Assembly: GCA_964354805.1 (NCBI GenBank)
Contig: CAYHBD010000009.1
Coordinates: forward strand, 32,001-96,000
Source of the DNA: an uncultured archaeon
GTDB lineage: Archaea > Iainarchaeota > Iainarchaeia > Iainarchaeales > GCA-2688035
Length of the DNA stretch: 64,000 nt
Direction: 5' to 3'
Positions 9,693-63,715 of the stretch are shown here, one piece after another. Both the position numbers and the translations under genes were made by a program. The notes below the pieces were generated by a model that saw only the letters and a list, made by a program, of their open reading frames with translations, was not told where the DNA came from and did not search any database. Each line of letters begins with the position of its first letter. The stretch's first letter is position 1.

Positions 9693-12308
9693 ATGAAGAA
9701 AATTCAGGCGATTGATTTCAGGGTTTTGAGCCCTGAAATGACCAGGAAAATGAGCGCTCTGGAGGTAAAGACGCCCGACACCTATGACAAGGACGGCTAC
9801 CCAATGGAAGGCGGCCTGATGGATCCGCATCTTGGAGTAATCAACCCTGGCTTGAGGTGCAAAACATGCGGCCAGAAAATAAAGTACTGCCCAGGGCACT
9901 TCGGCAGCCTGGAGCTCGTAAGGCCGGTTATCCACAGCGAGTTCAGCAGGAAGCTAGAGCAATTGATGCATGCAACATGCAAGGAATGCGGAAAAATTGT
10001 TTTGCCGGCGGAAGCAGTTGAGAAAGCGAAAAAAGCTTTAAGTGCAGAGAATGCTGAAATAATAGCAAAGAAAATTGTTGCAAAAACGAAGAAAGTGAAA
10101 AGGTGCCAGCACTGCGGCGCGCCAAAGGGCAGGATTCTGCTGGACAAGCCGACAAACTTTTTCTACAACAAGGAAAGGATTTATCCAACCCAGATAAGGG
10201 AATGGATTGAAAAAATCACTGAAAATGATTTGGTTTTGTTTGGTTATGACCCAGAGTTGATCAAGCCATTGTGGTTTGTTTTAAAGGTTCTGCCTGTTCC
10301 GCCGATTACAATAAGGCCAAGCATTACGCTTGAATCCGGAATAAAAAGCGAGGATGACCTTACGCACAAGCTGGTTGACATCATCAGGATCAATTTAAGG
10401 CTGCGGGACAACATTGATGCAGGAGCGCCACAGCTAATCATTGAAGACCTGTGGGATTTGCTGCAATACCATGTCACTACTTACTTCGATAATAACACTG
10501 CGGGAGTTCCGCCTGCAAAGCACAGAAGCGGCAGGGCCCTGAGGACAATAATGCAGCGCTTGAAGGGAAAGAAAGGCAGGTTCAGGCACAACCTGACTGG
10601 AAAAAGGGTGAATTTTGCCGCAAGAAGCACAATTAGCCCGGACCCTTACATTACAATCAGTGAAGTCGGCATTCCAAAAGAGATTGCCGACGAGCTTACT
10701 GTTCCGGAAACAGTAACAGAATGGAACAAAGACAGGCTAAAGGACATTGTTAAAGACACTGATAAAGTTGTTTACGTAATAAGGCCTGATGAGACAAGAA
10801 AAAAGGTTGAAGAAGCGACAAGAAAAGAGATTTCCGAGGAACTGGATATCGGCTTCAGGGTTGAGAGAAAGCTGCAGAATGGCGACATTGTTTTGTTCAA
10901 CAGGCAGCCCAGCCTGCACAGGCTGAGCATGCTTGCCCACAGGGTGAGGATAAGCACTGACAGGACTTTCAAAATCAATCCAACAGTCTGCAAGCCGTAC
11001 AACGCTGACTTTGACGGAGACGAAATGAACGTGCATGTTCCGCAAACAGAAGAGGGCAAGGTAGAGGCAACTGAGCTTATGTTCGTAAGGGACCAGGTGA
11101 TCAGCCCGAGATACGGCGCGCCTGTTATTATAATGGAAGAGGATGGAGTAAGCGGCTTGTTTGTTCTAACACTGCATTCAACAGAATTCAACAAAGCAGA
11201 GATAATGCATTACTTTTACGAAATTGGCTTAAACGACCTGCCGAAGCCAGACAGGGAGCGCAACTACAGCGGAAAACTTTTTTTCAGCCAATTGCTGCCA
11301 AAAGACCTGAACCTAGAGTATAAGACAAACATGTGCAAAATCATCCAGAAAACAAACCCCTGCGAGCAGTGCAAAAAGGACAAATGCCCTTTTGATGCTT
11401 ACCTGCATATTGAAAACGGAAAACTGTTATGCGGGGTTGTCGACCAGGAAAGCATGGGCGAGGCAAAAGGAAAGCTGGTTGATGCAATGGCAAGAAACTA
11501 TCCAAGCGAGGTAATTGAACTGTTCTATTTCAACGCAAACAGGGTTGTTGCTGAATTGCTTACAAAAAAAGGCATGACTGTAGGCCTTGACGAATACGAA
11601 ATAAGCGATGAAATCAAAAAAGAGAAAAGTAGGGTAATAAGCGAAATGATGCGCAAAGGAGAGCAGCTGGCAGAGTCATTCAAAAAAGGCACACTAGAGC
11701 ACATTCCAGGGAGGACGGTTGCAGAGAGCTTTGAAATAAACATGATACAGCTGGCAGCCCAGGAAAAGGACAAAATTGAAAAATTAATAATGAAAGAAAA
11801 ACTGCAGCCCATTATGCAGGAAAAGCCGAAGCTCAACACAATGGTCATGATTGTGAGCGGAAGCAGGGGCAGCAGCGTCAACCTGATGAACATAGGCGGC
11901 TTCTGGGGCCAGGCAAACGTAAGGGAAGGAAGGCCAAAGAGAGGCTACCAGCAGAGGCTGATTACCCTGAATGAAAAAGGCGATGTAGGAGTGCTTGCAG
12001 GCGGCTTTATATCAAGCAACTTCATAGATGGAATGCAGGCAAAAGAATACTTCTACCACAGCATGGGCGGAAGGCAGGGAGAAGTTGACACAGGGGTTTC
12101 AACAAAGGTCAGCGGTTACCTGTACAGGAGGCTTGCAAACAGCCTCAAGGACCTGATGGTGAACAATGATTTAACTGTAAGGACAGCCGAACGGAACCTG
12201 ATCCAATTCACCTACGGAGAGGACGGCGTATTCCCGCAGAAAACCTGGAGAGGAAAAAACATCAACGTTGAAGCAGAACTGGAAAAAATGGAAAAGGAAG
12301 CAAAGTGA
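9693..12308 (+). CDS. rpoA1: RNA polymerase subunit A' (Rpo1N)
   Basis: CPGHFG, NRQPSLHR, catalytic YNADFDGDEMN, SGYLYRRL; start may be GTG 9687. Confidence 0.98.
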   Translation: MKKIQAIDFRVLSPEMTRKMSALEVKTPDTYDKDGYPMEGGLMDPHLGVINPGLRCKTCGQKIKYCPGHFGSLELVRPVIHSEFSRKLEQLMHATCKECGKIVLPAEAVEKAKKALSAENAEIIAKKIVAKTKKVKRCQHCGAPKGRILLDKPTNFFYNKERIYPTQIREWIEKITENDLVLFGYDPELIKPLWFVLKVLPVPPITIRPSITLESGIKSEDDLTHKLVDIIRINLRLRDNIDAGAPQLIIEDLWDLLQYHVTTYFDNNTAGVPPAKHRSGRALRTIMQRLKGKKGRFRHNLTGKRVNFAARSTISPDPYITISEVGIPKEIADELTVPETVTEWNKDRLKDIVKDTDKVVYVIRPDETRKKVEEATRKEISEELDIGFRVERKLQNGDIVLFNRQPSLHRLSMLAHRVRISTDRTFKINPTVCKPYNADFDGDEMNVHVPQTEEGKVEATELMFVRDQVISPRYGAPVIIMEEDGVSGLFVLTLHSTEFNKAEIMHYFYEIGLNDLPKPDRERNYSGKLFFSQLLPKDLNLEYKTNMCKIIQKTNPCEQCKKDKCPFDAYLHIENGKLLCGVVDQESMGEAKGKLVDAMARNYPSEVIELFYFNANRVVAELLTKKGMTVGLDEYEISDEIKKEKSRVISEMMRKGEQLAESFKKGTLEHIPGRTVAESFEINMIQLAAQEKDKIEKLIMKEKLQPIMQEKPKLNTMVMIVSGSRGSSVNLMNIGGFWGQANVREGRPKRGYQQRLITLNEKGDVGVLAGGFISSNFIDGMQAKEYFYHSMGGRQGEVDTGVSTKVSGYLYRRLANSLKDLMVNNDLTVRTAERNLIQFTYGEDGVFPQKTWRGKNINVEAELEKMEKEAK

Positions 12309-12424
12309 AAAGAAAGGGAAAAATTGGCAATACGGGAAAATGATTGGTTAAAAGAAAAACCAAGAAACGAAAGGATAAGAAAGGGAAAAAAAGCTGGAAA
12401 AAATTAAAGGCAATGTGGTTTTTT

Positions 12425-13633
12425 ATGGCGAAGAAAGCTGAAAAGAAAGAGAGAAAAATTGCAAAAAAGGAAGAGCCTGCGAAAGAGCCTGTTGTCGAAA
12501 GGCCTGATGCGGCAAGGGAGCTTTGGGAGGACACCGAGCTGCCTTTGCTTGTTTTGGATGAGATTGCTTTGCTTGCAGAGAAGAACAAGCTGAACAAGCA
12601 GAAGACAGATGCCTTGATTGAAACAGTAAAGAAAAGCTTTGCGCCGCGCTTGGCAGAGCCAGGGGAAGCAGTCGGCATCATTGCAGCCCAGTGCATTGGC
12701 GAGCCAGGAACCCAGCTGACGCTTAGGACAAAACACTATGCAGGAGCGGCAGAGGTAAGCGTTGGAAGCGGAATCCAGAGGGTTGAGGAGATTGTTGACG
12801 GGAGAAGCAAGGCAAAGTATCCAACCATGACGATTTTTTTGGAAAAATCATTAGCAAAAGACAGGGATAAGACCGAAAAGTTCGCAAACAGCCTGATTGA
12901 TGTGAGATTGCAGGATGTTGTCCAGTTGACAGAGGATTTCAGCAGCAACAAAATCAACATAGCTATTGTTGAAAGCGCAGCCAAGGAAAGGGGCCTGAAA
13001 GCGGATGACCTGATTTCAAGGATAAAGCTCGGAATGAGGAACGCCAAGTCAAGGCAGAGGCACAACAGCATTGACTTTATTTTCAGCAAAAGGGAGCCAT
13101 TGCTAAAAATAAGGCGAAATTTGCTGAAACTGCTCAACAACAGGATTCAGGGAATAAGGGGCATTGAAAAGGTTTTGGTTGCGCGAGAAAAAGATGAATT
13201 TGTTGTAAAAACAAGCGGCAGCAATTTGAAGAACGTTCTGAAGCTGCCTGAGATTGACCCTGCAAGAACTATTTCAAACGACATAATTGAAACAAGCAAG
13301 GTCCTTGGAATTGAAAGCGGCAGGACAATGATTTTCCAGGAGCTGTACAAAACACTGAGGGAGAACAATATCCTTGTTGACCAAAGACACCTGATGCTGC
13401 TCGCAGACCTGATGACATTCAACGGCGAAGTCAAAGGAATTGTAAGGACAGGCATTACAAGAGGCAAGAGCAGCCCCTTCGCAAGAGCAGCATTCGAGGA
13501 AACAGTAAAGCACCTGCTTGACGCCAGCTTCAAGGGAGAAAGGGAGGAACTGCAGGGAGTAGTTGAAAACATCATTGTAGGGCAGCCAATAAAAGTCGGA
13601 ACAGGCATAGTGGAATTAATAATGAAAAAATAG
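12425..13633 (+). CDS. rpoA2: RNA polymerase subunit A'' (Rpo1C)
   Basis: [40 protein letters not shown]. Confidence 0.96.
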
Positions 13634-13725
13634 GGGCTGCGGCATAAAAGGGGTTGAAAAAAAAGTAAGAGCAGAGAGAAAATGATTGGAAAAATATGGT
13701 GCTGAAATCTGGGGGTGCTTTTTTT

Positions 13726-62907: not shown

Positions 62908-63040
62908 TTTTGTTGGTTGGAAAAAAAAATCCATAGTTTAAACAAAATGAAAGAAAAAAAAAAGGCAATTTCCGCAGGTGAAAAAATCAGTAGTTGGTTA
63001 AAGTGAAAGAAAAAGATGGTAATTCCGGCAGGTGAAAAAA

Positions 63041-63682
63041 ATGTATAGTTTGGTTAAAGTGAAAGACAAGGTGAGGGTTCCGCCAAAGCAGTTCACATCA
63101 AAATTGGAGAAAAGCGTTCTTGGTATGGTTCAGCAGGAATACGAAGGCCTTGTTGATGAGGACATCGGCCTTGTTGTAGCCGTGACAAATGTCAGCAATG
63201 TAGGGGAAGGCATTGTTGTGCCAGGAGACGGCAGTGCATACTATGACACGGAAATTGAAATGCTTGTATACAAGCCGCTGATGCACGAAGTGGTTGAAGG
63301 AAACATTAGTGAAATAACAGAGTTCGGCGCATTCGTAAGAATAAGCCCGATTGAAGGATTAATCCACGTTAGCCAGATAATGGATGACTTCATAAACTAT
63401 GATGCGAAAACCCCTTCATTCGTTGGAAAGAAAACAAGAAAGAAGCTGATTGTCGATGACAGCGTTATTGCAAGGATTGTAACAATTTCCTTGAAGGGAA
63501 ACATCCAGAACAGCAAAATCGGCCTGACAATGAGGCAGCCTTTCCTCGGAAAAGAGGACTGGATCAAAATGGACGAAAAAACAATCGGAAAAGACATTGG
63601 AAAAGAGCGAAAGGAGAAGCACGACAAGAGACAAAAAAGCGACAGGGACGAGAAAAAAGAGCAAGCACAAAAAGGGGGATAA
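63041..63682 (+). CDS. rpoE1: RNA polymerase subunit E' (Rpo7)
   Basis: VRVPP..F, PGDG..Y, FGAFV...P.EGL.H.SQ, GLTMRQP.LGK..W. Confidence 0.96.
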   Translation: MYSLVKVKDKVRVPPKQFTSKLEKSVLGMVQQEYEGLVDEDIGLVVAVTNVSNVGEGIVVPGDGSAYYDTEIEMLVYKPLMHEVVEGNISEITEFGAFVRISPIEGLIHVSQIMDDFINYDAKTPSFVGKKTRKKLIVDDSVIARIVTISLKGNIQNSKIGLTMRQPFLGKEDWIKMDEKTIGKDIGKERKEKHDKRQKSDRDEKKEQAQKGG

Positions 63683-63715
63683 CAAAAAAGGGGGACAAAC
63701 AAAAGGGCCATTAAA

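Follow-up and report, generated by a model that had tools for sequence, protein, structure and literature searches.

Expanded gene junctions in the ribosomal-protein superoperon of a Diapherotrites genus: probable short tandem duplications filtered by selection

Introduction

Why are genes of a highly conserved archaeal superoperon separated by long, A-rich spacers, many of which appear to hold copies of the adjoining gene ends? The question is raised by a stretch of 64,000 nucleotides (the window) from contig CAYHBD010000009.1 of GenBank assembly GCA_964354805.1. The source genome, called G000 here, is a 1.38-Mb metagenome-assembled genome (MAG) of 49 contigs, and the window is G000:C9:32001-96000. 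An original prediction, made by reading the nucleotides alone, had proposed that gene junctions in this region are duplicated recurrently and that the redundant copies decay into poly-A filler. The comparison reported here points to junction duplication, probably as one outcome of a genome-wide process that is filtered by selection. Decay towards A was not found.

The organism was placed in Candidatus Diapherotrites / Iainarchaeota (DPANN) through the source names of SecY homologues. The SecY of the nearest species-representative genome is 75% identical, and a genome of the same genus is absent from the representatives. Only two SecY homologues in the protein database are more than 80% identical. 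Two congeners were found through this database, R1 (a contig of NCBI GCA_053536015.1) and R2 (Joint Genome Institute, JGI, contig Ga0315276_10001034). A metagenome scan with an L19e-end pattern returned only the already known JGI contig. Proteins of R1 and R2 are 90-99% identical to those of G000. Divergence at four-fold sites is 0.18 for all three pairs, which is star-like and amounts to about 8-9% per lineage. Ancestral states were judged from R1, R2 and 14 more distant Diapherotrites relatives. R2 does not cover the S28e/L24e and RpoE-start junctions (a slash marks the junction of two genes), and the comparison there is between G000 and R1 only.

Ancestral and expanded junctions

Tight junctions are the ancestral state. 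At S19/L22, S4e/L5, L32e/L19e, L19e/L18, EMC3/L34e and S9/RpoN, the 14 relatives mostly have 0-20 nt or an overlap, whereas G000 has 80-210 nt. Three-way alignments of the same junctions in related genomes place the ancestral tight junction sequence at both ends of the insert. With orthologous junctions of 0-20 nt in the 14 relatives, and often in R1 and R2 as well, the proposal that recurrent junction duplication has expanded the superoperon is borne out. The span from Rpp29 to L13 is 15.2-16.2 kb in the congeners and 12.9-14.3 kb in the other relatives. Over a homologous 20 kb, each of the three congeners has 8-13 close repeats, and 12 of 13 other relatives have 0-3.

More than 20 junctions are unequal in length among G000, R1 and R2, with differences that range from tens to hundreds of nt. 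Expansions that are found in G000 only include L19e/L18 (121 nt, against 7 and 7) and EMC3/L34e (111 nt, against -17 and 1), besides the third unit of L13/S9 and, by comparison with R1 only, S28e/L24e. R1 alone has expanded L34e/x90 (166 nt, against 0) and L30/L15 (143 nt, against 7 and 8), among others. R2 alone has expanded S14/S8 (144 nt, against 18 and 20). L14/L24 is expanded in both R1 and R2 (120 nt, against 11 in G000), and the RpoE-start duplication is present in G000 and R1. All three congeners possess the duplications at S19/L22 and SUI1/Rpp29, the first, 49-nt duplication at L13/S9 and the array at L32e/L19e. Copy number also varies among them. L13/S9 has 2, 2 and 3 units, and L32e/L19e has 2 units in R1, 3 in R2 and 4 in G000.

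The manner in which a junction is divided can be followed at several of these sites. At L19e/L18 the ancestral spacing is 7 nt (R1, R2 and most relatives), and the L19e stop codon TGA lies within AAAGGTGA, the Shine-Dalgarno (SD)-like motif of L18. The pentamer GGTGA is enriched 7.6-fold upstream of predicted starts. In G000 the ancestral junction of about 15 nt now stands on each side of about 100 nt of filler. At EMC3/L34e the ancestral state is a gene overlap of 17 nt. In G000, copy 1 forms the EMC3 end and has lost the SD-like GTGGTG, and copy 2 contains GTGGTG and the L34e start. The S19/L22 filler contains a dead L22 start in which ATG has become AGG (ATGGCGAAGAAAAA to AGGGCAAAGAAAAA). 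Decayed 3' coding sequence lies ahead of the second copy at SUI1/Rpp29, where the two genes overlap in distant relatives, and at S14/S8 of R2. The L14/L24 spacer of R1 and R2 (L047 about 12180-12305; L049 about 10165-10290) is a clean triplication of a 54-55-nt unit. Homology over the whole unit was found there, in the L32e/L19e array and at S19/L22, SUI1/Rpp29, L13/S9, EMC3/L34e and S14/S8 (R2). In the S4e/L5 spacer a GGCAGGCGAAGAAAAGG-type unit is present twice in G000, and the L5 SD/start region GGAAAGTGAATGGAAA is present twice in R1 and in R2.

Two further observations were made among the relatives. G029 (L036), from another family of the order, has independent expansions at S19/L22 (156 nt), L32e/L19e (91 nt) and L19e/L18 (116 nt), where most relatives have 5-20 nt. 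In the L13/S9 junction of R1 (L045 about 17400-17470), both copies of the L13 end have GGAG where G000 and R2 have GGGG, and this shared G-to-A change suggests gene conversion between the copies or coincidence.

Frequency and distribution of the repeats

Genes were called with a simple codon-model caller (1298 genes, 84.6% coding). A total of 477 co-directional junctions with spacers of 40-400 nt were then tested by Smith-Waterman alignment of the spacer with the terminal 60 nt of the upstream gene or the initial 60 nt of the downstream gene. Non-adjacent flanks, which retain the A-rich low complexity, served as controls. The 99th control percentile was exceeded at 51 of the 477 junctions for the upstream gene end and at 39 for the downstream gene start. 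At this threshold, 15 of the 46 window junctions with spacers of at least 40 nt were significant, compared with 70 of 431 elsewhere. The claim that the spacers hold copies of their neighbours thus applies to 15 of 46 in the window; about two thirds have no detectable copy. The excess of match lengths over shuffled sequence was confirmed in a check run with 300 dinucleotide shuffles, in which p<0.01 was reached at 5 of 42 window junctions (0.4 expected). This test scores the longest exact match and under-counts copies that span annotated starts.

Close direct repeats (exact, at least 14 nt, non-low-complexity, spacing 20-300 nt) number 233 genome-wide. At control spacings the number falls to 50 (1 kb), 28 (2 kb), 20 (5 kb) and 3 (10 kb). 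Spacings of 40-60 nt are the most frequent among the close repeats. Their density is about six times higher in junction and intergenic DNA, which makes up 15.5% of the genome, than in coding DNA. Inside genes, 95 of 108 repeats have a spacing divisible by three. The spacings of junction and intergenic repeats (n=125) are mixed, with 59, 38 and 28 by residue modulo 3. Core lengths are 14-68 nt, periods are 47-131 nt, and there are 2-4 imperfect copies at 54-95% identity. The original prediction had described the process for a core superoperon. It is genome-wide, and its intragenic form consists of in-frame (3n) repeats. The superoperon has about twice the frequency of detectable junction copies and is not special in kind.

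Decay and base composition

In alignments of a coding copy with its spacer copy, the two differ at 9.8% of first, 8.6% of second and 18.7% of third codon positions. This pattern fits uniform neutral decay of the free copy together with synonymous drift in the coding one. The two effects are comparable in magnitude to the divergence per lineage between the congeners.

The copies had been said to drift mostly towards A, and four independent counts rule out such a mutation bias. From coding to spacer copy, A is gained at 26 mismatches and lost at 25. In well-aligned columns of orthologous spacers, polarised changes gain A 20 times and lose it 36 times. Lineage-specific changes at four-fold sites occur at 0.075 for G>A and 0.052 for A>G, with little C>A or T>A. 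When the spacers are compared with gene ends and starts together, A and T gain about equally, so that the change is from GC to AT.

The A-richness of the spacers is a legacy of Lys/Glu-rich gene termini and of a regional purine bias, and it gives no direction of decay. GC content is about 45%, and the sense strand is rich in purine and in A in coding and non-coding DNA alike. The composition of window spacers (A.43, T.225, G.215, C.13) can be compared with that of the terminal 60 nt of genes (A.415, T.15, G.283, C.15). Outside the window, spacers have only a mild excess of A (A.33, T.29). Runs of A outnumber runs of T by four to one in the window spacers, and this excess could come from selection against oligo-T terminators within a polycistronic unit. 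Duplication that favours A-rich DNA was also considered. The A content of repeat regions genome-wide is 0.33-0.36 compared with 0.31 in host genes, and any such preference would be a weak effect at most (0.33 against 0.31).

Repeats and other features of the window

On the + strand are the archaeal rpoH-B-A operon, L30e-NusA-S12-S7-EF2-tuf-S10 and the L3-to-SecY ribosomal cluster, together with the S13-S4-S11-RpoD-L18e-L13-S9-RpoN-S2 cluster and L7Ae-S28e-L24e-IF2-S6e-eIF2gamma-RpoE. Gene names rest on the gene calls and on the Pfam tables of R1 and R2. The repeats are listed in Table 1. All pairs in the original prediction were recovered where it had placed them. Among the cases that it had put forward as weaker, the rpoA1 end and the rpoD start both have copies; ftsZ is at 2177-3259, outside the range of 12280-63710 to which the prediction referred. 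Copies had been proposed for both ends of rpoE. The duplication at its start was confirmed, and the copy at its end was not significant.

Table 1. Junction repeats and in-frame repeats in the window (positions are those of the window)
Feature	Position	Strand	Description
rpoA1 end / rpoA2 start	12297..12456	+	three 27-nt copies, 81% each, spacing 67 and 66: 12297-12323 (including the stop), 12364-12390 (spacer), 12430-12456 (rpoA2 5' codons)
tuf (EF-1alpha) end	20925..20998	+	20925-20940 (including TAA) and 20983-20998 (tuf/S10 spacer), 16/16 identical, period 58; shuffle p=0.003; Smith-Waterman 28, above 99th control percentile
S19 end/stop	32384..32458	+	32384-32399 and spacer copy 32443-32458, 16/16, period 59; in all three congeners
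SUI1 end / Rpp29 start	34638..34711	+	34638-34654 and 34695-34711, 17/17, period 57
S4e/L5 spacer	37290..37458	+	nested internal duplications
L32e/L19e spacer	39883..40061	+	array of about 4 units with L32e stop / L19e SD motif (TTGTTTTAAAC.GGTGA)
L19e stop / L18 SD-start	40502..40633	+	AAAGGTGA.TGGAAA at both ends of the purine-rich filler of about 100 nt; 13/14 match
EMC3 (DUF106) / L34e	45141..45336	+	period 128, 68 nt at 82%, core 26/26
rpoD start region and weaker upstream copy	47962..48108	+	period 131; downstream Smith-Waterman 26, above 99th percentile
L13 end, three copies (49998, 50047, 50107)	49998..50131	+	
S9 end	50660..50774	+	28/28 identical copies 50660-50687 and 50747-50774 around hairpin element (about 50688-50735)
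S28e end / L24e start	57751..57893	+	50 nt at 82%, period 93, 25/26 match; no such spacer in R1
RpoE (Rpb7-like) SD/start region	62956..63040	+	31 nt at 84%, period 54; also in R1
L32e N-terminal Lys/Glu-rich extension	39180..39339	+	three 51-nt units, in-frame counterpart of the junction repeats
S3 in-frame repeat	33624-33923		
S2 in-frame repeat	51853-51936		two 42-nt units
eIF2-gamma in-frame repeat	61079-61315		

The in-frame repeats occupy Lys/Glu/Ala-rich extensions of L32e, S3, S2, eIF2-gamma and S9. Low-complexity extensions of 50-115 residues that are built from such repeats are encoded in S3 (33600-33946), L32e (39173-39480), eIF2-gamma (61005-61330), S9 (50132-50300) and S2 (51850-52023). 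Their lengths vary among the three congeners; L32e, for example, has 231, 277 and 219 amino acids (aa).

The starts of rpoA2, L22, S9 and L24e are alike, with a T-run followed directly by ATGG (12415-12430, 32468-32485, 50122-50137 and about 57858-57872). In three of these four genes, TTTTT(T)ATGGCGAA is found at the start. Rfam and ARAGORN were run on the window and gave no matches. A class II-type tRNA gene with intervening sequences, which both missed, is located at 48936-49081 in the RpoD/L18e spacer.

Interpretation and alternative explanations

The best explanation of the data as a whole, and a likely one, is that short tandem duplications occur throughout the genome, that selection filters them, and that the copies of a duplicated junction divide the stop and start roles between them. 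Duplications with periods of mostly 40-130 nt would arise genome-wide, presumably by replication slippage or microhomology-mediated tandem duplication. In genes, only those that are in frame (3n) would survive, and these would extend protein tails rich in Lys and Glu. Both genes would stay intact where the duplicated piece includes a stop or start codon, and such a duplication could persist at any length. The ancestral tight junction would have had the upstream stop within or beside the downstream SD-like GGTGA and start codon. After duplication, copy 1 would serve only for the C-terminal codons and the stop, copy 2 only for the SD and the start. The redundant parts would decay at about the neutral rate, and units may later be re-duplicated, lost or scrambled. 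The net result would be growth of the ribosomal-protein cluster by 2-3 kb in one Diapherotrites genus. The repeats, their excess over the controls, the 3n filter, the ancestral states of the junctions, the shared and lineage-specific events, the variation in copy number and the codon-position pattern of decay are all observed; in this scheme we infer the molecular mechanism of duplication and the neutrality.

Several observations weigh against this explanation. More than half of the repeats are sharp islands that span less than 40% of the period, and only 16 of 119 junction and intergenic repeats genome-wide span at least 80% of the period ungapped. Microhomology arms at the unit borders were not established. 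In several complete tandems the repeat runs on for 8-40 nt into part of a third unit; in the decayed cases of the window the unit borders are no longer recognisable. Some lineage-specific fillers, such as the one of about 100 nt at L19e/L18, resemble neither their flanks nor the rest of the genome. Since this L19e/L18 insert is absent from congeners that have diverged by about 8% per lineage, simple duplication with clock-like decay is insufficient. BLAST searches of G000, R1 and R2 with all spacers, and with short words for five fillers, matched a dispersed hairpin element and a tRNA-flank repeat and found no other donors of filler. It is possible that such fillers come from nested re-duplication and deletion in low-complexity filler (as in S4e/L5 and L2/S19), from older events that were later deleted between direct repeats in the sister lineages, or from template switching that made the filler at birth. 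Loss of the flap endonuclease was considered as a cause of the lineage effect and rejected, since Fen1 (PF00867) is present in G000 as an open frame of 354 aa. The check covered this one repair gene, and on that basis there is no obvious repair defect behind the lineage effect.

The repeats could instead have been separated by filler from birth, as long target-site-type duplications or template-switch products that accompany insertion of a hairpin element or other filler at a junction. The S9-end copies of G000 flank a hairpin element, and the whole insert of 87 nt is missing from R1. The L2/S19 junction, which is tight in G000, is filled in R1 by an insert that matches a dispersed ACACCTTTTCTTTTAGAAAAAGAAAAGCTGTACCAAAAGAAAA element (at least 20 copies), with a 33-nt junction copy on each side. 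R2 has related hairpins at the same junction, independently, followed by a decayed L2 end. The majority of sharp islands and the fillers without traceable origin would also fit. As an account of the whole, insertion is nevertheless unlikely. Perfect stems of at least 8 bp are present in just 9% of fillers compared with 4% of controls, and by this modest enrichment hairpins were also rejected as a general cause of the duplications. Most of the well-preserved cases have whole-unit homology without an element, the range of repeat lengths (14-68 nt) is unlike that of a ruler-type enzyme, and the non-hairpin fillers have no second genomic copy. It is very unlikely that the copies are kept for a function, whether as a relay of translational coupling through mini-open reading frames (mini-ORFs), as proposed for mycobacterial interspersed repetitive units (MIRUs), or as sites of RNA processing or regulation. 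The L14/L24 triplication of R1 and R2 does form two mini-ORFs (15 and 12 codons) with the original distance from stop to next ATG, and from their arrangement these could act as a translational relay. A short ORF in the L13/S9 spacer of G000 and R1 stops at a pseudo-stop 7-10 nt before the S9 start, and cores stay identical where flanks are unrecognisable. However, the L13/S9 mini-ORF is lost in R2, the tuf and S9 copies are at least 100 nt from the next start, and the window has no Rfam family match. Spacer states vary freely among genomes with 90-99% identical proteins, and mismatches at codon positions 1 and 2 accrue at about the neutral rate.

That the second gene-end copies are scars of recombination, left by homology-facilitated illegitimate recombination or allelic replacement with diverged relatives, is highly improbable as a general explanation, and it holds for one gene. 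The RtcB end VPLGVMKG is encoded at 25771-25797 and again at 25833-25856; 7 of 24 nt differ, in each case synonymously. The downstream copy has its orthologue in the true C-terminus of the R2 RtcB, which is longer, and this marks the copy as an allelic-replacement scar and not a local duplicate. The EF-2 end KSAAFFLE, with its stop, recurs as KTAQFFLE and a stop about 129 nt downstream (18000-18155), beside an accessory islet, and may have a similar origin. Over all pairs, third codon positions differ only twice as often as the others, and the mismatches are not overwhelmingly synonymous. Most copies include non-coding SD or start parts, whole-unit tandem structure and copy-number variation, and non-synonymous decay was seen in the relics at S14/S8, S19/L22 and EMC3/L34e. 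Assembly artefacts or strain chimeras could be suspected in a MAG of 49 contigs, and here they are scarcely credible. The repeats, at 14-68 nt, are shorter than a sequencing read. The duplications at S19/L22, SUI1/Rpp29, the first L13/S9, the L32e/L19e array and the RpoE start recur in independent assemblies (an NCBI MAG and a JGI contig), which is a strong argument against artefacts.

A minority of cases have origins other than local duplication, namely the hairpin element flanked by junction copies and the RtcB allelic-replacement scar. The dispersed ACACCTTTTCTTTTAGAAAAAGAAAAGCTGTACCAAAAGAAAA element is about 43-85 nt long, is often followed by a shortened second module, and has its copies in G000 at 86-100% identity. 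In the window it is located at 24285-24327, 49083-49126 and about 53125-53168 (- strand). As a rule it follows immediately on a tRNA 3' end or a gene stop. In appearance it resembles a terminator or a triplex-forming repeat. A hairpin, GGTATTG...CAATACC, is located between the two RtcB-end copies (25771-25859). A perfect palindrome, GGGTTACGTTATAACGTAACCC, is located between the two EF-2-end copies and adjoins the accessory islet that splits fusA from tuf.

Comparison with known systems

The process had been presented as one without a known description. Tolerated tandem duplication outside coding sequence has, however, already been described (PMC13167724; bioRxiv 10.64898/2026.02.28.708716; PMC9879509). 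Microhomology-mediated or slippage tandem duplications (MTDs) are described as universal and reversible, and as depleted from coding sequence by purifying selection (PMC13167724; bioRxiv 10.64898/2026.02.28.708716). The repeats described here are similar in that local head-to-tail copies of tens of nt gain and lose copy number, are enriched outside genes and pass a strong coding filter in which frame-breaking events are removed (95 of 108 in frame). Whole-period head-to-tail copies at named junctions, reversible copy number and the frame filter were all found. Unlike MTDs, the survivors cluster on the stop/SD/start junctions of a universally conserved operon. They are also mostly old and decayed, the burden is raised in one genus relative to its relatives, and the microhomology arms are putative.

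The tandem repeats of Borg elements of Methanoperedens are another archaeal, lineage-specific system with fast turnover (PMC9879509). As in the present case, genic repeats are divisible by three and give disordered Lys/Glu-rich regions, intergenic repeats often begin inside gene ends, and flanking partial repeats occur (PMC9879509). Borg repeats are perfect, of many copies and clearly A-enriched (PMC9879509), whereas the 2-4 copies found here are imperfect; A stands at 0.43 in the window spacers, and genome-wide repeat A-enrichment is slight (0.33 against 0.31). MIRUs are intercistronic repeats of 40-100 nt in operons, with variable copy number and with some short ORFs coupled to the downstream start (PMC12548453). 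Their position and variable copy number are shared here, and the mini-ORFs at L14/L24 (R1, R2) and L13/S9 (G000, R1) may be a counterpart of the coupled ORFs. MIRUs are one sequence family dispersed across many loci (PMC12548453). In this they differ from the present repeats, where each junction copies its own local sequence and only the separate hairpin element is dispersed. No second copy of fillers or cores was found elsewhere in the genome. Off-target integration of the CRISPR type (Cas1-Cas2) was ruled out by the variable lengths (cores 14-68 nt, periods 47-131 nt).

An excess of close direct repeats in prokaryotic genomes was reportedly explained by Achaz, Rocha and colleagues in 2002 as tandem duplication followed by divergence and deletion. 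Theirs is said to be a description of genome statistics that does not address the decoupling of junctions or ribosomal-protein operons. The literature search found no paper on junction duplication as a systematic remodeller of the archaeal ribosomal superoperon. The present case is one of tolerated short tandem duplications at gene boundaries, a known copying error that is unusually well resolved here, and not a new device. A more far-reaching reading would be that elevated turnover of short duplications in one Diapherotrites genus uncouples stop, SD and start in the superoperon and yields spacers, relay mini-ORFs and Lys/Glu-rich tails, with a subset of cases due to a mobile triplex/hairpin repeat that makes target duplications of 25-45 nt. 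This reading is doubtful. The mode of integration with long target duplications, or of template switching, that forms part of it is not described for archaeal small repeats.

Significance

Annotation of this lineage may be affected, since gene callers can be misled by the pseudo-starts and pseudo-stops of expanded spacers, and operons here do not conserve the length of their spacers. The window also corrects an attractive but wrong inference, in that the A-richness of the spacers is inherited and regional and does not indicate a direction of decay. For the biology of these archaea, the junctions show, with ancestral states, that even in a highly conserved operon, genes that overlap or abut may come to be separated harmlessly. 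A lineage within a group of compact genomes can also quickly gain both intergenic DNA and protein tails.

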